A DNA stretch of 64,000 nt from positions 12,900 to 76,899 of the forward strand of contig CAZHYN010000004.1 in assembly GCA_964536865.1 (NCBI GenBank). Reading direction: 5' to 3'. This DNA is from an uncultured Planctomycetia bacterium. GTDB lineage: Bacteria > Omnitrophota > Gorgyraeia > Duberdicusellales > 4484-171. The notes below the pieces were generated by a model. That model had not been told where the DNA came from. It saw only the letters and a program-made list of their open reading frames with translations, and did no database searches. Position 1 is the first letter of the stretch. Every line of letters begins with the position of its first letter. Shown piece after piece: positions 21,695-31,170 of the stretch. The translations under genes and the position numbers were made by a program.

Positions 21695-22790
21695 ACCTCT
21701 ATGGATAGAGATTAAACTAGGAAATTTAAGAAAGAACTTATCTTTAGTAAGGAGATATGTTGGAGAGTCTGTAAAGATCTTAGCTACCGTTAAACAGAAT
21801 GCTTACGGTCATGGTCTTATAAGGATAGCTAAGGAGTTAGATAATTTAGGAGTGAACTTTTTTGGTGTGGGAAGTCTTGAGGAGGCTATAGCTTTGAGGG
21901 AAGCTGGGATTAAGAAGCCAATTTTAGTTCTTACTGCTTTACTTCCTTCTACAATAAAGCTTCTCATAAAGTATAGAGTGAGGCCTACTGTAGTGGATTT
22001 AGCTTTTGCTAGAAGATTAGACAAAGAGGCGAAGAGGTTAGCTAAAAAAGTTGATATACATATAAAAGTAGATACAGGAATGGGGAGATTAGGAGTTTGG
22101 TGGGAAGATGCTAAGAAGTTTATCTGCAAAGTTTGCAACCTAAAAAATCTATATGTAGAGGGACTTTTTACTCACTTTTCCTCTGCGGATACCGACTATT
22201 CTTTTACTACATTCCAGATTAAGTCTTTTAATACTCTGATTAAGGAATGTGCAAAGGAAGGGATATTTTTTAAGTACCTCCATTCCGCTAATAGTATTGC
22301 ACTCATTAAGTACAAGAGCTCGCATTTTAATTTAGTAAGGCCAGGTTTGATTCTCTATGGGATAAATCCTTACTCCAAGATGAATATTGAGTTAGCGCCT
22401 TTACTTTCTTTAAAATCAAAAGTTATATTTTTAAAGAAAGTGGACAGAGGACGAAGTATAAGCTACGGAAGGACCTATATAACTAAAAGACCTACCACTA
22501 TTGCTACTGTAGGATGTGGGTATGCCGATGGATATCCTTTTGTTCTATCTAATCGAGGCAAAGTAATTATAAAAGGAGAGTTCTTTAATATAGTAGGAAG
22601 AGTATGTATGGATCACTTTATGATTGAGGTAGGGAGTAATGAGAAGATAAAAATAAGAGATACAGTTACCCTCATAGGGAAAGAAAAAAATGCTTACTTG
22701 AAGGCAGAAGATTTGGCAAGATGGGCAAATACTATACCTTATGAGATTGTAAGTAGATTATCTTTAAGTATTCCCCGTATTTATAAATAA
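21687..22790 (+). CDS. alr: Alanine racemase
   Basis: PLP-binding lysine motif VKQNAYGHG. 367 aa. C-terminal beta domain. Confidence 0.9.
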   Translation: MFRPLWIEIKLGNLRKNLSLVRRYVGESVKILATVKQNAYGHGLIRIAKELDNLGVNFFGVGSLEEAIALREAGIKKPILVLTALLPSTIKLLIKYRVRPTVVDLAFARRLDKEAKRLAKKVDIHIKVDTGMGRLGVWWEDAKKFICKVCNLKNLYVEGLFTHFSSADTDYSFTTFQIKSFNTLIKECAKEGIFFKYLHSANSIALIKYKSSHFNLVRPGLILYGINPYSKMNIELAPLLSLKSKVIFLKKVDRGRSISYGRTYITKRPTTIATVGCGYADGYPFVLSNRGKVIIKGEFFNIVGRVCMDHFMIEVGSNEKIKIRDTVTLIGKEKNAYLKAEDLARWANTIPYEIVSRLSLSIPRIYK

Positions 22791-22792
22791 CT

Positions 22793-23878
22793 TTATCTGA
22801 GAAGAAGGAGAGCGCTTATTCCTGCAGTAAAGAAGAATAAAGGTGCTGTCCATACACACAAAGAAGGCAGAAGTACTCCTGCTTTACCTAAGGCTAAACT
22901 TACTGAAAATATTAGATAATAAAGAAAACTAAAAATAAAGGCTAAGCCTAGAGAAGAGAGGGCAACCCTGCGTTTTCTTATTTCTAATACAAAAGGAAGT
23001 GCTCCTATTATGAGAAAAAAATGAGAAAAAGGTTGTGCTATCTTCTGATGGAATTGGATAGTAAGATTAGAGAGAATATTATATGCCTTTATCTTAATAA
23101 GTCGATGTATTTCTTTTCTTAAGTCTTTGAGAGAGAGAAATTCTCCTAAGGCAGTTCTCTTGATTAAAAGCTCCTCTGGCTTTTCTTCTAACTCTATTAC
23201 TTTGGTCTTAAAGTATAAAGGTCTGTTGGAAATTTTTCCTTGGAAGTTCACCTTATAGGAGATAACCTCATTTGCTACCCACATACCTTTTAAGTAAATC
23301 ATCTTTTTTATCATCATTTTTTCCGTAATGTTCCCCTGATTATCTTCTTTAAAAATTACTACTTCCTTTAGGGATTTCTGATGAGGAATAAAGCGAGATA
23401 CAAAAAAGAACATATTTTGATATCTGAAGGTAATATTCTTCCTCTGTGAAGATATTTTTTTCTTCTTTATATATTTTATCTTTATTTCCTCTACTTTTTC
23501 TTGTGAGATAAATAGTAATCTCTCTTGAATAAGTAAAGAGGTAGATGAAACTATGAAAGATAAAATTAGTGCTGCTAAAGAGATTCTAAAGACACTTAAC
23601 CCAAAGGTTCGCATGCCCAGAACCTCGTTACTTTTATTCAACCTTGCAAATGTATAAATGGTACTTATGAGAAGAGAAAAAGGACTTACTCTTAAAAGTA
23701 TTAAAGGCAGGTTATAAAAATAGTAGGTTACTAAAATATTAAAAGGAATTTTGGTTTCTAAAAAACTTCCTAAATTAGAGAAAAGGTCCACAATTACATA
23801 TAATCCTATAAAAGCAGAAAGTACGGTGAGGTAACTTTTTACAATTTTGAGAGAAATATATCTGTCTAGAATGTACAT
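22793..23878 (-). CDS. lptG: LPS export ABC permease LptG (YjgP/YjgQ family)
   Basis: 361 aa, 6 TM helices with a central periplasmic domain. Paired with a second paralogue immediately upstream on the same strand. Confidence 0.75.
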   Translation of the reverse strand: MYILDRYISLKIVKSYLTVLSAFIGLYVIVDLFSNLGSFLETKIPFNILVTYYFYNLPLILLRVSPFSLLISTIYTFARLNKSNEVLGMRTFGLSVFRISLAALILSFIVSSTSLLIQERLLFISQEKVEEIKIKYIKKKKISSQRKNITFRYQNMFFFVSRFIPHQKSLKEVVIFKEDNQGNITEKMMIKKMIYLKGMWVANEVISYKVNFQGKISNRPLYFKTKVIELEEKPEELLIKRTALGEFLSLKDLRKEIHRLIKIKAYNILSNLTIQFHQKIAQPFSHFFLIIGALPFVLEIRKRRVALSSLGLAFIFSFLYYLIFSVSLALGKAGVLLPSLCVWTAPLFFFTAGISALLLLR

Positions 23879-24948
23879 CTTATTAGAAGGTAGATGCCCA
23901 ATATTAGAAAGATTATGTTAGGGATCCACATTCCTAAAGAGGAGACTACGATATTAGATTTCGCCAGAGTTTCTCCTAAGATTAAAAGGAGATAGTAACT
24001 AACGGCAAGAAGAAAAGTTACCCCAAAGTTAATCGATTTCTCTCTATGCCGCACCCGTGTTGCTATTCCAAACCCCAAGATTACGAATATTAAAGGTGAA
24101 AGGGAGATGCTAATTCTTTTGTGAAATTCTATAATGAGGTCTTTGGGGAAAATTTTAAGATTTCTGAGATAAGCTATTTTTTCTTTTAGCTCTTCCATAG
24201 TTAAATCTTTCGGTTTCTTTTTAATTGGAGTTTTAATTTTCTCTTCTATAGGTATATCCATAAAAAATATTTTGAAACTTAATCTGTAGAGTTCGTTTCT
24301 GTCCTTAGGATTTATTTCATCCCTAAATCCATTTTCTAATTTCAATTTTAAAATTTTTTCCTGAGAGATGAATTCTCCTTTTTTAGCAAAAGTAATCTGC
24401 TTCAAACTATCATTTTCTATCTGATAAATAAAGATATTCTTCATTTTATTTCCTTTAACATCTCCCACATAAAGGATGTAGTTACCAAAATTTTCCAAAA
24501 ATATGCCTGGTTCAATCACTGCAGAGATATTCTTTCTATATAAGTTTTTTATGCGTCGATAATAGCGATAGTGAAAATTAGGGAGTATCTTATCATTGAG
24601 AATGAAGAGGCACGCAGAGAAGATGACCCCTAAGATTAGGAATATTCTTAAGATTCTTGCTAAGGATATTCCTGCCACATGCATAGCTACAATCTCATTA
24701 TCAGCAATTAGCCTTCCTAAGGAGAGGAGGATTCCTAAGAGGAGAGATAGAGGTATAGTAAATCTCAAAAGATAAGGAACAAAGAAAAGAAAAAGTGCTG
24801 TTGCATCTTTTAAAGCTACGCCCTTCCTTATTACCATATCAGAAAGCTTTATAAGGTTACCCAAGACCATTACCATAGTAATGGAAAGAAGAGAAAAGGT
24901 GAATGCGGAAAAAAAATCTTTGAGGATATAGTTTCTGAGAATTCTCAT
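23866..24948 (-). CDS. lptF: LPS export ABC permease LptF (YjgP/YjgQ family)
   Basis: 360 aa YjgP/YjgQ-type permease. 13-bp overlap with lptG. Confidence 0.75.
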   Translation of the reverse strand: MRILRNYILKDFFSAFTFSLLSITMVMVLGNLIKLSDMVIRKGVALKDATALFLFFVPYLLRFTIPLSLLLGILLSLGRLIADNEIVAMHVAGISLARILRIFLILGVIFSACLFILNDKILPNFHYRYYRRIKNLYRKNISAVIEPGIFLENFGNYILYVGDVKGNKMKNIFIYQIENDSLKQITFAKKGEFISQEKILKLKLENGFRDEINPKDRNELYRLSFKIFFMDIPIEEKIKTPIKKKPKDLTMEELKEKIAYLRNLKIFPKDLIIEFHKRISISLSPLIFVILGFGIATRVRHREKSINFGVTFLLAVSYYLLLILGETLAKSNIVVSSLGMWIPNIIFLILGIYLLIRCTF

Positions 24949-25655
24949 CGTACTCTAGCTAAGGTTATAACGGTAATAGATGAGGCTCCTTTTTCTTTCA
25001 GTACCTTACTGCACTCCGAGACAGTAGCTTTTGTAGTTACTACATCATCAACTAATATTATATTTTTCCCTGTAAGGTCGCCTTGAGCATAAAATTTCCC
25101 TTTTATATTTATGATTCTTTCTCGGAAGTTAAATTGAGTTTGTGTTTTGTAGTATTTTGTGCATATAAGAGTATTTTTGCTGTGGGGAATATTCAGAGAG
25201 AGAGATAACTCCTCAGCTAGAAGTTGAGATTGATTATATCCCTTTTCTCTTATCCGGAGAGGGTGAGAGGGTACGTTTACTATAAGGTTATAGGGGATAA
25301 AATCAAAGCCTATTCTTTTTAGATGAGTTACCATCAGGGAAGTAAAGAACTTTTTTAAGAAGGCATACTCTTTATATTTAAAAAGGTGAATAAGAGAGCT
25401 CAAGGGATTTTGATAAAGAGCTACACTTATAAGCTGGTCATAAAAGAAATATTTATTTCTACAGTTTCTACATAAGTTCGTTTCTGGATTTACAGGAAGG
25501 GAGCACATTTTACATAGGGGAGGAGTTAAAAAGACTATTTTTTCAAAGCATGACTGGCAGAGAATTCCTTCTTTTATTTTTCTTTCACATATAAAACATA
25601 CAGAAGGAAAGAAGATTCCTTTTAGAGTTTCCCACCAAGAGTTACTTCCTTTCAT
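24945..25655 (-). CDS. comF: ComF-family protein (double zinc ribbon plus phosphoribosyltransferase domain)
   Basis: N-terminal CxxC...CxxC...CxxC ribbon. C-terminal PRTase motif ILVDDVVTT. Confidence 0.8.
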   Translation of the reverse strand: MKGSNSWWETLKGIFFPSVCFICERKIKEGILCQSCFEKIVFLTPPLCKMCSLPVNPETNLCRNCRNKYFFYDQLISVALYQNPLSSLIHLFKYKEYAFLKKFFTSLMVTHLKRIGFDFIPYNLIVNVPSHPLRIREKGYNQSQLLAEELSLSLNIPHSKNTLICTKYYKTQTQFNFRERIINIKGKFYAQGDLTGKNIILVDDVVTTKATVSECSKVLKEKGASSITVITLARVR

Positions 25656-25786
25656 GGATTTTATTTTAATTTATTAACAGAGGATTGTAAACTGATTTCT
25701 TAAAAGCTTATTTTTGAATTCCTCTGAATTTCTTGATTTGAGGGAGTAAATATGGTAAAAAGAAAGCAGAGAGGAGGTGATAAATT

Positions 25787-26497
25787 ATGAAAAGGGGTTA
25801 TTCCCTCATAGAAATTATAATGGTAGTAGTAGTCAGTCTTGTTATTGCTACCTTTACTGTGGTGGGGTATCGGCAGCTTTTGGAGAATGCTCGTCAAAGA
25901 GTATGTTCTACCAATTTAAAAGCCTTAGGGGCAGCGGTAGAGATTTATGCTTTAGAAAACGATGTTTTGCCCGCTACTTTGGGAGATTTAAAACTAGAGC
26001 ATCTTCTAAAAGGTTATGCTAAGGTGATAGATAGTAGAGATTGGTTTACAAAATTTTCTTATTTTTTTATCAAAATTAATACTCCCCCTGATGTTTATGC
26101 TCAGTTTTTAACCCCTGAAAACTTAAAAAAATATGGGGTAACTCCAGAAATATTTAGATGTCCTGCAGATACAAATGGTCCTCCTTCTTATGGTATAAAC
26201 GCTAACTTGGCAGGTAAGAAGTTAGAGAATATTCCCCCGGGAGAGATTATAGTTGCTGAGTGCGACCACTATACTTTTACTTCCCAGGATGAACTTTCCT
26301 TTCGTCACTTCTCTGGTTTTGGTCTTAAGAAGCTTGCGCAGATGTTAGTAGTTGCTGAGGAAGGGAAAGGGCAAGAAAAAGGGAAAAAAATGAAGATGAT
26401 GAAGAGGAAGATGATGAAGATGAAGAAGACGAAGATGATTGAAATTCCTCTGAAGGGAAGGTTAAAAAATAAGAGGAGGGATAAACAGGAGAAGTAG
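25787..26497 (+). CDS. Prepilin-type N-terminal cleavage/methylation domain protein (pilin or pseudopilin-like) with a Lys/Met-rich C-terminal tail
   Basis: Class III signal KRGYSLIEIIMVVVV. RBS GGAGGTGA 7 nt upstream. Tail KKMKMMKRKMMKMKKTKM is encoded by a (GAW)n purine triplet repeat that follows an A7 tract. Confidence 0.7.
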   Translation: MKRGYSLIEIIMVVVVSLVIATFTVVGYRQLLENARQRVCSTNLKALGAAVEIYALENDVLPATLGDLKLEHLLKGYAKVIDSRDWFTKFSYFFIKINTPPDVYAQFLTPENLKKYGVTPEIFRCPADTNGPPSYGINANLAGKKLENIPPGEIIVAECDHYTFTSQDELSFRHFSGFGLKKLAQMLVVAEEGKGQEKGKKMKMMKRKMMKMKKTKMIEIPLKGRLKNKRRDKQEK

Positions 26498-26525
26498 ATA
26501 GTAGACTCCATAGTATCTTTTTATA

Positions 26526-28889
26526 ATGAAATTTTTCAAGGATAAAGATTTTCTCTTCCCTTTAATAATTTGGTTTATAATTATTTTCTGGTATTTAATC
26601 TTTGCGTATAGTTTTTTTTACCCTTTTCGTATTCGTCTACAGGATAAACTGAATTGCCAGGCATTTTATGTATTTTCTCATCCTCCTTCCTCTGTAAACA
26701 AAGTAGTAATTGTAGCTATTGACTCAGCTTCACGCCAGTATCTTCAGCTTAAATGGCCATGGCCAAGGAGGATTACCGCTCGTCTTCTTCGTAACATTAT
26801 GGAGTTCTCTCCCAAAGTTATAGGATTGGACATTATCTTTGCGGGTAAATCCTCTTCCGAAGATGATGAAGAGTTGCTCAGTGTGTTAAAAAACTATCCT
26901 CATACAGTATTAGCGTATACTCTATCTGAAAAAAGCTGCGAATATCCCTGGGAAGGATTTAAAAGAGTGGCTCCTTCTTTAGGATTCATAAATAAGCCAG
27001 GAGAGAAAGATAGGGTAGTGAGAAGTATCCGTACCTTCTATATAGATAGAGAATGGAGGACGCATTACTCTTTAGATACCCAGATTTTAATTCACTATTT
27101 TAATATTAAAAAAGAAGATATTAAGGTTGAGCTGGCTAAAGGAATTTTCTTAGGAGAGAGACTTTTTGTGCCTTCATCAGGGGGAATAACTCCTCTTAAT
27201 TACTTGGCCCATCCTAGTGATTTTATCACCGTCCCTGCTTTTTTGGTGTTAAATAAGAAAGTCGACTCCGATATATTTAAAGATAAAATTGTCCTTGTAG
27301 GTGCTACCGACCCTTTGATTCATGATGTTTGCTCTACGCCCATAGGAGTTTTCCCAGGAGTAACAGTCATAGCTAACTCCTTGGTAATGATGTTAAGTGG
27401 ACGTTTCCTCTACTATCTTCCTTTAGGAGTAACTGTTCTTCTTTCCTTGGGTGTAGGTATTGGAATTATGATGATTAATAAGAAATTTTCTTTGAGTTTT
27501 TCTTCGCTAATTACTTTTGTAATTTTAATTTTTTCTTATTTTTTACTTCTCTACTTAAGGGCAAAAGATATTCAGATTGACTACTTTACTTTTTTCTTTC
27601 TAGGAGTTTCTGCTTATTTGGTTCCCAATGTATACAAGTATAGCTATGCCATATATATGGGCACTACACTCAAGAACCTGGCTATAAGAGATCCTCTTAC
27701 AGGATTCTACACCTTCCGTTACTTTTCCTTAAAAATTGAGGAGGCATTGAAGGAGAAATCAAAAAGTATAGGATTAGTTATCATTATGTTTTCTAATTAT
27801 AAAAAGCTTTCTCTAAAGTTAAGTTTTGAGCACTTGAAAAGACTGGTTAAGCTACTTTCTAATTTTCTTCAGGTGAGTGTCTCTAAGGAATTTAAGCGGT
27901 TCTTCTTCTCCCGTATTTCTGAAGATTCAATAGCAATAGCTCTTTTAGAAGAAGATAGGGAAAAGATAGAAAAATTTTTAAAAATTATGTTAGAGGAGTC
28001 CAAGCATAAAGAGTTTAAGGTGGAAGATTATTCTGTAAAAGTCTTTTTTAGAGGAGTGATATTCTACAAGAGGAAAGGGATTCGCCTGAGCAGAGAAGTT
28101 TTGCTTTCTAAAATAGAGAGTTTCTTGAGAGAATTCCGCAAAAAGAGTGATGAACTTGCTATTTTGGAATTAGAAGAAAGTAAGGAAGAGACAAGGGATA
28201 CTCTTTTGCCATGGGAAAGTTGGGATTTTTTGATTACTGATCTGGAGGAGAGAAATAAAGAATTAGAGAGGGCATTGAAAGAGACTCTCGATACCAAAAG
28301 AGAGACAGAAGAAGCATATTTTGGGCTAATTTATTCTCTTGTCAAAGCGTTGGAGGAAAAGGATACTTATACTCAAGGACATTCGGAGAGAGTGGCTAAC
28401 TATGCTAAAGCTATCGCTGAAGAAGTGGGTTTAGACGAGGAGGAGTGTGAGTTAATTTACAAAGCAGGACTTTTACATGATATAGGCAAAATTGGCATTC
28501 CTGATTATATTCTCCATAAAAAGAAAGAGCTTACCTCCCAGGAAAGGGAGTTTATAAGAAAACACGAAATAATGAGTGTAGAAATACTTAGGCCTATCAA
28601 AGCCTTCCACCGGTTGCTTCCTATAATTTTGCATCATCATGAGCGTTTCGATGGTACCGGTTACCCTTATGGTTTGAGTGGAAATATGATTCCTCGTGGT
28701 GCTCAAATTTTGGCAGTGGCAGATGCTTTTGATGCTGTAACCTGTGGTAGGGGATATAAGAAAGGAATAAGTTTTGAGGAGGCGATTAGAGAATTAGAGA
28801 ATAATAGTGGTACACAATTTAATCCTGTTTATGTTGAGGCACTGAAGAAGGTAATTAACAGGTCTTTTAAGAATGAAGATTTTTCCTAA
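26526..28889 (+). CDS. CHASE2 sensor, degenerate GGDEF domain and HD-GYP c-di-GMP phosphodiesterase
   Basis: N-terminal CHASE2 region bounded by TM helices. RDPLTG start of a GGDEF-like domain that lacks the GGDEF motif. C-terminal HD-GYP domain (HSERVANYA...LHDIGKIGIP...HHHERFDGTGYPYGL). Confidence 0.85.
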   Translation: MKFFKDKDFLFPLIIWFIIIFWYLIFAYSFFYPFRIRLQDKLNCQAFYVFSHPPSSVNKVVIVAIDSASRQYLQLKWPWPRRITARLLRNIMEFSPKVIGLDIIFAGKSSSEDDEELLSVLKNYPHTVLAYTLSEKSCEYPWEGFKRVAPSLGFINKPGEKDRVVRSIRTFYIDREWRTHYSLDTQILIHYFNIKKEDIKVELAKGIFLGERLFVPSSGGITPLNYLAHPSDFITVPAFLVLNKKVDSDIFKDKIVLVGATDPLIHDVCSTPIGVFPGVTVIANSLVMMLSGRFLYYLPLGVTVLLSLGVGIGIMMINKKFSLSFSSLITFVILIFSYFLLLYLRAKDIQIDYFTFFFLGVSAYLVPNVYKYSYAIYMGTTLKNLAIRDPLTGFYTFRYFSLKIEEALKEKSKSIGLVIIMFSNYKKLSLKLSFEHLKRLVKLLSNFLQVSVSKEFKRFFFSRISEDSIAIALLEEDREKIEKFLKIMLEESKHKEFKVEDYSVKVFFRGVIFYKRKGIRLSREVLLSKIESFLREFRKKSDELAILELEESKEETRDTLLPWESWDFLITDLEERNKELERALKETLDTKRETEEAYFGLIYSLVKALEEKDTYTQGHSERVANYAKAIAEEVGLDEEECELIYKAGLLHDIGKIGIPDYILHKKKELTSQEREFIRKHEIMSVEILRPIKAFHRLLPIILHHHERFDGTGYPYGLSGNMIPRGAQILAVADAFDAVTCGRGYKKGISFEEAIRELENNSGTQFNPVYVEALKKVINRSFKNEDFS

Positions 28890-29481
28890 GACTTTCTTTC
28901 TTTTTTTCTTCCTTCCTTCGTTAATTTTTGGATGCAGTTATCCAATTAAAAACTTAGATTCTCCAGGAGAGATAATAATATGTTTTGGAGATAGTATAAC
29001 CCGGACAGAGGGAATTCCTTTAGAGAAAACCTACCCTGCAATTCTAAGTGAACTTTTACATAGAGAAGTTATAAATGCCGGTGTTTCTGGTGATACAACT
29101 GCCACTGCTCTAAGAAGATTAGAGAGAGATGTTTTAAGGAAGAATCCCTACTTGGTTATCGTGGAGTTAGGAGGCAATGATTTTTTAACTGGGATCTCTA
29201 AAGAAATCACTTTAAGGAACTTGGAAGAGATAATCGTTAAGATTCAAGAAGTGAAAGCTATAGTTGTTCTTTGCGATATAAGCTGTGGTTTCATCCTCTC
29301 AGGGTATAGGAAAGATTTTTACCAGTTGGCTAAGAAGACAGGTGCCATTTTCGTTTCTCAACTACTGGAGGGAATCTTAGATAATCCTTCTGCAAAACAG
29401 GATTATATCCATCCCAATGTTGAAGGTCATAGACTTATCGCTCAAAAAATCTACCAAGTGATAAAGCCCTACCTCAAATAA
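28873..29481 (+). CDS. SGNH/GDSL hydrolase lipoprotein (TesA/arylesterase-like)
   Basis: Lipobox LIFGCS. Catalytic block I IICFGDSIT. Block III GGNDF. DxxH near the C-terminus. Confidence 0.85.
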   Translation: MKIFPKTFFLFFFLPSLIFGCSYPIKNLDSPGEIIICFGDSITRTEGIPLEKTYPAILSELLHREVINAGVSGDTTATALRRLERDVLRKNPYLVIVELGGNDFLTGISKEITLRNLEEIIVKIQEVKAIVVLCDISCGFILSGYRKDFYQLAKKTGAIFVSQLLEGILDNPSAKQDYIHPNVEGHRLIAQKIYQVIKPYLK

Positions 29482-29826: not shown

Positions 29827-29932
29827 TAACAAATTCGCCAAAGGCGATTTCCCTTATTTGTTCCGACAATACTTTCGTTTCAGAGTTAACTTCTAGCTTA
29901 AAAAAGAAGTTAATGAATGTGAGATTAAACCA

Positions 29933-30016
29933 TGCCGAGGGCGGGAGTCGAACCCGCACAGAGTTACCTCTACCGGTTTTTGAGACCGACGCGTCTGCCA
30001 ATTCCGCCACCTCGGC
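29933..30016 (-). tRNA. tRNA-Leu(CAA), class II with long variable arm; CCA not encoded
   Basis: Hand-folded from the sequence. Acceptor GCCGAGG/CCTCGGC. Anticodon stem TCGGT/ACCGG with loop CTCAAAA. 15-nt variable arm. T arm GCGGG-TTCGACT-CCCGC. Discriminator A. Confidence 0.85.
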
Positions 30017-30185
30017 ATTTACTTTATATTATTATCCTACTCCTATTAGTCTTGCTCCTTAACAACTTCTCTCTTCTATTAACTACACGGGAACAACTAA
30101 ATTGAGCTTCGCTGTAATAACAGCGAAAGTTGTTACCGCCACCTCGGCATTTACTTTATATTATTATCCTACTCCTATTAGTTCT
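30000..30185. repeat. ~49-bp direct repeat (30000-30048 and 30137-30185) copying the tRNA-Leu 5' end plus its upstream flank
   Basis: ccgccacctcggcatttactttatattattatcctactcctattagt occurs twice, 137 bp apart. The spacer contains palindrome cgctgtaataacagcg. Confidence 0.85.
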
Positions 30186-30421: not shown

Positions 30422-31170
30422 TCCGCCAAAGGCGGACCCACTTATGAGGGGCGATCCTTGATGGGCCATTTAAAAATAAATAAATTTCTTCTTTGGTCAT
30501 ACTCTAGGGGTGACAGCAAGCCGTGTTTAACTACCTCGGATTTACTTATAGGCTTGCGTCAGAGGGGCAGAGCCCCTATGAGGAGCGTAAGCGACAGGGC
30601 CGTAGTTTCCGCCAAAGGCGGACCCGCTTATGAGCGGGCAGCAGGGAGTAAGTTGTCTGCAACGTTAAGTTGCAGTATTCTTAAATATACAACTTCCTCC
30701 ATTGTTTATGATGTTAAAGATAGGCTGTCTCTTTAAAATAGAAGCTAAAGAAAAGTGATGGGGCCGTAGTTCAGCAGGGAGAACGCTACGCTGGCAGCGT
30801 AGAGGTCAGGGGTTCAAATCCCCTCGGCTCCACCAGTTAGATTGTTAAATTCTCATTTTTAGGTGATATAAATGTTTTTATTAATAGATGGTAATTTTTA
30901 AGGTTTTCCAGTAAAATTGCGGGGCCGTAGTTTCCGCCAAAGGCGGACCCGCTTATGAGCGGGCAGCAGGGAGTAAGTTGTCTGCAACGTTAAGTTGCAG
31001 TATTCTTAAATATACAACTTCCTCCATTGTTTATGATGTTAAAGATAGGCTGTCTCTTTAAAATAGAAGCTAAAGAAAAGAGATGGGGCCGTAGTTCAGC
31101 AGGGAGAACGCTACGCTGGCAGCGTAGAGGTCACGGGTTTCCGCCAGAGGCGGACCCGCCTTTAGGCGGG
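30422..31170 (+). repeat. Four copies of a ~31-nt GC-rich double-hairpin mini-element (30422-30451, 30608-30639, 30933-30964, 31140-31170)
   Basis: Consensus tccgccaRaggcgga-cccgcYtWtRaGcggg. Copies 1-3 follow gccgtagtt, a tRNA-Ala 5'-end mimic. Copy 4 lies inside the T-loop of the second tRNA-Ala. Stem 2 shows compensatory T:A to C:G change between copies. Confidence 0.8.
30760..30835 (+). tRNA. tRNA-Ala(GGC) with G3:U70 identity pair; CCA encoded
   Basis: GGGGCCGTAGTTCAGCAGGGAGAACGCTACGCTGGCAGCGTAGAGGTCAGGGGTTCAAATCCCCTCGGCTCCACCA. Anticodon loop CTGGCAG. T arm AGGGG-TTCAAAT-CCCCT. Confidence 0.9.

Follow-up and report, generated by a model that had tools for sequence, protein, structure and literature searches.

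Does a pilin-like protein of an uncultured bacterium switch its C-terminal tail between basic and acidic forms by gaining and losing one adenine? The question is raised by a prepilin-type gene in a 64,000-nucleotide (nt) stretch of contig CAZHYN010000004.1 (assembly GCA_964536865.1; lineage Omnitrophota), hereafter the window. Near the 3′ end of this gene, seven adenines (A7) lead into a purine array that encodes mainly Lys and Met (K/M) in the frame of the gene and only Glu and Asp in another frame. A first-pass annotation, made from the letters alone, tentatively read this layout as slipped-strand phase variation, in which frequent changes in A-tract length would flip the tail between basic (A7) and acidic (A8). 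Our comparison of the gene with its relatives points elsewhere: the frameshift is probably real and fixed in this lineage, an ordinary evolutionary event with no sign that the tail switches.

Two frames in one purine array

The A7 tract (26384-26390) and the Lys/Met-coding purine array behind it are both as the annotation described. The tract is preceded by GGG (26381-26383), and the surrounding sequence reads GAA AAA GGG AAA AAA ATG AAG ATG ATG AAG AGG AAG ATG ATG AAG ATG AAG AAG ACG AAG ATG ATT GAA. In the frame of the gene (0 frame), the open reading frame (ORF) ends in EEGKGQEKGKK-MKMMKRKMMKMKKTKM-IEIPLKGRLKNKRRDKQEK before its stop codon. The other frame reads GAA GAT GAT GAA GAG GAA GAT GAT GAA GAT GAA GAA GAC GAA GAT GAT TGA (26392-26442) and encodes EDDEEEDDEDEEDEDD. 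Although the acidic tail and its TGA are thus present as claimed, the frame that had been labeled +1 is in fact −1 (or +2); the true +1 frame meets a TGA almost immediately. One added base (A7 to A8) or a −1 slip of the ribosome is enough to reach the acidic frame.

The acidic array consists of three 15-nt units plus GAT, and Tandem Repeats Finder reports 3.3 copies of a 15-nt unit. Within the 64-kb window it is the sole (GAN)n run of at least 6 codons, and the sole coding-strand (GAN)n run of at least 4 codons not in phase with the ORF that contains it; in the 0 frame, the array (26390-26437) is likewise the sole (ANG)n run of at least 5. The GAN run at 26392-26442 is no chance feature. Since a TGA at 26356-26358 closes the acidic frame upstream, leaving it open only from 26359, this frame cannot be an independent gene, and any change of frame must fall inside 26359-26391.

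The acidic frame is the frame of the orthologs

Which of the two frames came first? Nine close acid-tailed sequences (P0002/L002, P0038, P0003/L003, P0034, P0036, P0037, L004, whose contig is that of L012, L013, and L014) are 85-91% identical to the window protein; L004 comes from a Guaymas metagenome-assembled genome (MAG). Gene order in the window is that of these close orthologs: ComF-like, pilin-like, CHASE2/HD-GYP, GDSL. Behind their conserved head they carry two to four GKGKKK repeats, a short helical-looking segment, R/G/H-rich repeats, and an acidic tip, which is in frame in all nine and reads FEDEEDGED, FEDEEDEED, or FEDEEDEDEDEED, each followed by a stop, or FEDEED. In the loci read as DNA, the tip codons are GAA, GAC, and GAT, closed by GAT TGA. 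None of the nine has a K/M tail. The window array aligns locally to the tails of L013 and L003, GATTGA included, and the last 55 nt of the window ORF are homologous to the spacer that follows the TGA of the orthologs. Because the acidic frame is in frame in all close orthologs, with a homologous TGA and spacer, it is the ancestral one.

The array itself bears the same mark. Positions 1 and 2 of the acidic frame are GA in 16 of 16 codons, with variation at position 3 alone, and the three differences among the 15-nt units all fall at an acidic-frame third position. The acidic frame is therefore the one in which the array DNA evolved, and the K/M reading is the same DNA out of phase. The suggestion that the two frames are biologically linked, through the change of a single base in or next to the A tract, is borne out by the in-frame acidic tip of every close ortholog. 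The annotation had also asked whether orthologs conserve only the K/M frame, which it took as an argument against switching; we found the opposite, in that orthologs keep the acidic frame only.

The orthologs have no A tract at the junction where the frames part in the window. Their tails differ by whole units, namely two to four copies of GKGKKK (18 nt) and RGHRGGHF-type units (24 nt), and their acidic tips are 6-13 residues long. In-frame variation in tandem-repeat length of this sort is typical of exposed proteins. A distant relative, P0023/L025 (44-829), reads TAC AAA AAA AAT GAT GAT AAA GAT GAT AAA GAT TGA (YKKNDDKDDKD and stop), an in-frame A8 running into an acidic tip, which is the arrangement of the window plus one A.

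A second strain carries the same frame

If the window lineage departed from the ancestral frame, is the departure real, and is it stable? A sister sequence, P0035, surfaced in the member listing of the P0003 cluster. It lies on L026, a contig assembled from another JGI metagenome and collinear with the window over 23317-29001 (5.7 kb) at ~96% nucleotide identity; four-fold-site divergence is 31/549, or ~5.6%. From 23317 to ~28840 the two differ by one indel only, a 30-nt repeat difference, and the L026 array has one 15-nt unit as against three in the window. The L026 junction reads GGGCAAGAAAAAGGGGAAAAAATGAAGATGATGAAGAGGATTAAAAC, and its protein tail, GEKMKMMKRIKTYLKRRIKNKRRGKQEK followed by a stop, is in the K/M frame as in the window; the −1 frame of L026 gives NEDDEED and TAA. 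Its tract, GGGGAAAAAA, is G4A6 where that of the window is G3A7, equal in length and different by substitution. Since the K/M frame occurs in both the window and L026, the out-of-frame state is older than the split of the two strains. In all, five assembled contigs from two diverged strains have this frame, the exact window protein (P0001) occurs in NCBI, JGI, Logan, and ENA assemblies, and SRR7517633 as re-assembled in Logan matches the window without a difference across 6.7 kb.

These observations bear directly on whether the frame is an error of sequencing or assembly, such that the true tract is A8 and the protein ends in an acidic tail. Homopolymers are classic error sites, and the acidic frame looks designed and is used by the orthologs. 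However, an error would have to recur in another strain, from another metagenome and with another tract sequence, and again in the identical Logan re-assembly, while leaving the 30-nt repeat difference as the only indel between assemblies. The window is 96% coding; it contains 56 long ORFs, none of its genes is split, and 38 long homopolymers occur well inside intact ORFs, so there is no homopolymer problem in this assembly. An error is exceedingly unlikely, and this explanation is close to refuted.

Can the same data accommodate phase variation? Slipped-strand switching at homopolymers is well known in genes for surface structures, such as the poly-G tract of Neisseria pilC and the poly-G/C contingency genes of Campylobacter and Helicobacter. 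The window resembles these loci in that a homopolymer lies inside the ORF of a surface-appendage-type protein, where a one-base change would swap the C-terminus; the tract marks the very point at which the frames part, each frame runs open to a stop close by, one family member does pair A8 with an acidic tail (P0023/L025), and family tails are hypervariable in length. Yet the tract is short, at A7 (A6 in L026), and neither unusually long nor conserved, being absent from the orthologs. It shows no length polymorphism across two strains and five contigs, all five of which are in the K/M frame. The heterogeneity in A-tract length among related strains that the annotation proposed to look for came out as one length for the whole tract, G3A7 and G4A6. 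Where length does change at this locus and in its orthologs, it does so by whole units of 15, 18, or 24 nt, with the frame kept.

Searches for the switched state gave the same answer. Nine simulated repaired acid-tailed proteins, made by one- or two-base changes in the purine runs at 26363-26392 or just after the A tract, were absent from an exact look-up in ~15 billion sequences. A search with the core of the protein gave nothing more than 91% identical besides P0001, with the three nearest clusters fully listed. When the core protein was used to scan GTDB genomes and JGI metagenomes, orthologs came back but no A8 variant, though the window's own contig did not come back either. Nor is the tract exceptional in its setting: the window contains 58 A or T runs of at least 7, up to A9, and 61 of 65 comparable tracts (A/T at least 7, G/C at least 6) lie in intact ORFs. 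With the same frame in five contigs, no tract-length variants, and no repaired protein, slipped-strand phase variation is very unlikely.

How the frame may have changed

Where did the two frames part? The 0 frame agrees with the orthologs up to GGG AAA, and the phase change therefore lies inside 26387-26392. In the closest orthologs, the head is followed by a long basic region, (GKGKKK)n plus R/G/H-rich repeats, and then by a short acidic GAN-coded tip, FEDEEDxED, and TGA. The window lineage lacks the ~90-residue basic K/G and R/G/H region of the orthologs and also EVVKK, their last conserved strand. With that region gone, the GAN array stands directly behind GGG AAA AAA, one base out of phase. 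The ribosome would then read A-N-G codons (Lys, Met, Arg, and Thr), pass the old TGA, and go on through 19 codons of former spacer until it meets a TAG, and the product would have a strongly basic tail of ~35 residues in place of the acidic one. The change of frame presumably arose once. One possible path is contraction of A8 to A7, from GGG AAA AAA AAT GAA GAT (KKNEDD); another is that the basic region was lost in a 3n+1-base deletion whose end fell within a GAT codon. The in-frame A8 of P0023/L025 supports the contraction path.

What followed the change can be seen by comparing the window with L026. Within the segment read from the former spacer, 10 of 57 nt differ, as against 5.6% at four-fold sites (P ~0.002), with 6 non-synonymous and 3 synonymous codon differences. 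The core differs by 7 synonymous and 4 non-synonymous codons in 597 nt (199 codons). Between these strains the head domain is under purifying selection and the gene is maintained, whereas the read-through segment is not so constrained. We take the gene to be functional, with a tail whose precise sequence is unconstrained. A comparison of four-fold sites in the GDSL gene was discarded, as the homology between window and L026 collapses there.

Net tail charge ranges from +9 to +18 in the orthologs; the window (+15) and L026 (+12) lie within that range, and the acidic frame would give −14 or −6. A flip of charge, which the annotation envisaged, did take place, from acidic to basic, as a fixed change; on-off switching finds no support. 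The basic tail is probably the expressed product, and the change may have been tolerated or even favored, keeping the net positive tail charge of the orthologs. It may be the basic character of the tail that matters. Alternatively, this character could be the automatic off-frame yield of a purine-rich array.

Several points weigh against a frameshift that is simply fixed. Our evidence is at the level of assembled sequence, where minor A8 subpopulations or recoded products would escape view. The acidic frame is still intact: none of its 32 GA positions has changed, and both strains retain a stop at its end (TGA and TAA), which could mean that the frame is still used, though equally that the event was recent or that the repeats have been homogenized. 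Moreover, the argument from conserved charge rests on two strains and a handful of orthologs, an off-frame purine-rich array gives Lys and Arg automatically, and either contraction of A8 or a 3n+1 deletion would fit. Neutral divergence from L002 of ~0.23 substitutions/site per lineage predicts ~7 hits in the 32 GA positions, and none is seen. We considered whether this necessarily makes the frameshift recent and give the argument little weight, since repeat expansion can homogenize an array.

A fixed frameshift that creates a new C-terminus is a known kind of event, found here in a little-known Omnitrophota family of pilin-like proteins. The closest likeness, in codon logic and in outcome, is to the exon 9 frameshift mutants of human CALR in myeloproliferative neoplasms, which are also fixed mutations and no switch. 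CALR is a eukaryotic chaperone of the endoplasmic reticulum altered by somatic disease mutations, whereas the window shows the germ-line state of a pilin-like protein in two bacterial strains; the likeness is one of mechanism only, with no homology. The locus would be a clean bacterial example of a GAN-coded acidic tail turned into a Lys/Met/Arg tail by a one-base change of frame, as in CALR, and suggests that a frameshift can supply a new basic tail in place of a lost basic region. Its meaning is otherwise mainly cautionary and descriptive, in that a dual-coding repeat behind a homopolymer may prove to be a fixed evolutionary frameshift and no switch.

Could both tails be made?

Even if the DNA is fixed in the K/M frame, the gene might yield both products. 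A −1 slip on G-AAA-AAA, or an A added by RNA polymerase, would also give GKKNEDDEEEDDEDEEDEDD followed by a stop, an acid-tailed protein that keeps the ancestral function. The heptamer G-AAA-AAA (26383-26389) lies in the −1 slippery phase (0 frame GGG AAA AAA ATG), with perfect re-pairing in the A site and two of three pairs in the P site, as for C-AAA-AAA (PMC1851650). In that same phase, over-expressed pDEST17 constructs with C-AAA-AAA showed −1 ribosomal frameshifting in E. coli at a level of 25-60% (PMC1851650). By analogy, some −1 product, GKKNEDDEEE and onward to the stop, is conceivable from the window site. The conservation of the acidic frame can also be counted in favor of recoding: the frame is intact in both strains, with all codons GAN and the stop kept as TGA or TAA, and the differences between units are confined to its third positions. 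In addition, AGGG lies ~11 nt upstream.

The features that accompany programmed −1 frameshifting are not in evidence at this site. There is no downstream RNA structure (minimum free energy −11.6 kcal/mol, z = −0.61, with the repeat unpaired), and the upstream AGGG is weak and stands in a uniformly purine-rich stretch, where purines resembling a Shine-Dalgarno (SD) sequence are a by-product of Lys, Gly, and Glu codons. In-frame AAA-AAA dicodons number 56 in window ORFs against 63 expected, 16 of them G-AAA-AAA, and are thus neither avoided nor special. L026 carries G-GAA-AAA, a poorer slip site, and there is no conserved shift site with a two-ORF layout, as the other orthologs encode the acidic tip in frame, have no shift site, and need no recoding. 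The site shares its phase with known Lys-Lys heptamers (A-AAA-AAG of E. coli dnaX; C-AAA-AAA of Gateway attB1, PMC1851650), and a −1 product here would be shorter with a different C-terminus. It differs from dnaX-type sites in having no stimulatory hairpin, in a motif that is common in ordinary genes, and in lacking conservation in L026.

Slippage by RNA polymerase is a further route to the acidic frame. In endosymbionts, poly(A) tracts allow frameshifted genes to be rescued by transcriptional slippage. The window resembles such cases in that a one-base change at an A run disrupts an ancestral frame and the homologs are single ORFs, but documented runs are ~9 or more (PMC1088944), whereas that of the window is 7 (6 in L026) and only a terminal low-complexity tail is affected. 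Baranov et al. screened 9-nt runs for functional transcriptional slippage (PMC1088944), and A7 falls below this length; A8 and A9 runs are present in other window genes. On balance, we consider dual coding by recoding unlikely. A gene of two products, which makes mostly the basic tail and a minority acidic isoform by −1 slip or polymerase stutter and has its acidic frame under selection, is quite improbable. If it were true, one surface protein would have two tails of opposite charge. The frameshift fixed in the DNA, with the basic tail as its product, remains our preferred reading.

The protein and its family

The annotation called the protein pilin-like, which holds for the N-terminus. The leader and methylation motif are present as MKRG/YSLIEIIMVVVVSLVIATFTVVGY, with the slash marking the cleavage site and Glu at +5. 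TIGR02532 scores 21.7 bits against a cut-off of 16.3, but Pfam N_methyl, at 16.4, is under its cut-off of 21.2. Models of GspG, PilA, and ComGC match the N-terminus only; the GspG major pseudopilin model TIGR01710 reaches 29.3 bits against a cut-off of 88.85, over residues 3-68 alone. Although the leader, G/Y-S-L-I-E, and the hydrophobic helix are thus like those of type IV pilins and type II secretion system (T2SS) pseudopilins, the head of the window protein has no Pfam or PDB match, the gene stands beside CHASE2/HD-GYP and not beside pilus or secretion machinery, and the long low-complexity C-terminal tails of the Omnitrophota family are atypical of pilins.

An AlphaFold2 model of the protein has a mean predicted local distance difference test (pLDDT) score of 82.6, exceeding 80 up to ~residue 190, with a low-confidence tail. 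In it, residues 7-58 form a long helix, behind which come further helices and 4-5 strands. Foldseek of this model against PDB gave no match with E <1, and the head fold could not be named; the head also lacks a Pfam family match. As modeled, the fold may be a variant without a solved representative. Positions P62, L65, Y77, A78, D128, S134, Y135, R173, and H174 are invariant in alignment A1.

A search of 5.8 billion clustered proteins returned only 27 relatives. Those that are labeled all come from uncultured Omnitrophota MAGs, some named ComGC or PulG by their sources. The relatives share a head of ~190 residues, ending near RH...A....K..I.K, and diverge completely beyond it into Cys-rich modules, helical acidic segments, Pro repeats, R/G-rich repeats, and acidic tips. 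The locus draws attention to a small, Omnitrophota-specific, pilin-like family with hypervariable, repeat-built, charge-patterned tails, beside a CHASE2/HD-GYP gene in every locus examined. If Omnitrophota attach to hosts or surfaces by pilus-like fibers, one might conjecture that tail charge could matter.

In this family, a purine-rich tail tends to be open in a second frame as well. The tails of P0008 (L022:871-1566) and P0007 (L023:228-968) are R/G/P-rich as annotated, and their +1 frames are acidic and Leu-rich, reading EEGFQDTLDLDTLEDLDALEDNLESLD and SDVEENLREEGILEKEEARIDKILEED plus stop. We rejected further tail frameshifts in these two as unproven. The annotated tails match the RG repeats that P0003 and P0037 have in frame (E = 0.007-0.07 in a small database), and the alternative frames match in-frame tails weakly (E = 0.2), so that similarity slightly favors the annotated frame; six sequences, from several MAGs, share an identical P0007 tail.

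Two other relatives have interrupted reading frames. In L005:3001-3800 (JAGLUN010000032, Omnitrophota RS_11_35), the homologous ORF stops at a TAG after (YPPP/HPPP)n; a second in-frame TAG follows six codons on, and directly behind it lies CEEDCNEEFESCCVGHSVSYCTHKKTTCLSRCE with its stop, a clear relative of the Cys-rich modules in the tails of P0005 and P0006. The two in-frame TAGs cut off this Cys-rich module through decay, read-through, or error. In L006:3001-3120 (CAZVRU010000005; P0027), the conserved Gln of NARQRVC is TAG and the gene is called from a downstream Met; it may be a pseudogene in that MAG.

Features of the locus and neighboring genes

Features of the pilin-like gene and its downstream neighbor (window coordinates)
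Feature	Position	Strand	Basis or remark
Prepilin-type (pilin-like) gene, 236 aa	25787-26497	+	ORF list; 0 frame
Prepilin leader MKRG, motif G/YSLIE, hydrophobic N-terminal helix	25787-25870	+	TIGR02532; Glu +5 at 25811-25813
Conserved head domain, to RH...LAQMLVVAEEGK	25871-26368	+	Common to 26 database homologs
Short −1-frame open stretch GRERARKREKN	26359-26391	+	Three-frame translation and indel simulation; TGA at 26356-26358 bounds 5′ side
G3A7 tract	26381-26390	+	Junction where the gene frame and the ancestral acidic frame part
16 A-N-G codons, 0 frame, MKMMKRKMMKMKKTKM	26390-26437	+	Three-frame translation
−1 frame of array, 16 GAN codons, EDDEEEDDEDEEDEDD and TGA	26392-26442	+	Three-frame translation; homologous to in-frame acidic tip and stop of orthologs
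0-frame read-through into former spacer, IEIPLKGRLKNKRRDKQEK and TAG	26438-26497	+	Aligns with spacer after TGA of orthologs
CHASE2 and HD-GYP-type (HD_5) signaling gene	26526-28889	+	Pfam; adjoins pilin-like gene in all loci examined

The CHASE2/HD-GYP neighbor carries a degenerate GGDEF region. Its adjacency to the pilin-like gene is seen in L002, L003, L019, L021, and L026, and holds in L021 despite reversed order; such constancy suggests a functional link to cyclic di-GMP-type signaling. Within the locus, no pilus or T2SS assembly gene and no prepilin peptidase gene lies beside the pilin-like gene, its neighbors being ComF-like, LptF/G, CHASE2/HD-GYP, and GDSL. A strong SD-like element, AAGAGGAGGGA (26471-26481), is found within the read-through tail, ~45 nt before the ATG of the next gene. 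It is kept as AGGAGAAGGGA in the spacers of the orthologs and is too distant to be the ribosome-binding site of the annotated start.

Farther along, nucleotide identity between the window (~28850-29481) and L026 (6180-6813) falls from ~96% to ~63% in a segment that spans the 3′ end of CHASE2/HD-GYP and the GDSL lipase gene, which suggests a recombination boundary or allele replacement at that end. At its other end, L026:1-688 is an inverted copy of adjacent sequence (window 22683-23371), where the call of the LptF-like gene is truncated; this is probably an assembly artifact at the contig end. The only sizeable non-coding stretch near the locus contains tRNA-Leu(CAA) (29932-30017, − strand) and tRNA-Ala(GGC) (30760-30835, + strand).

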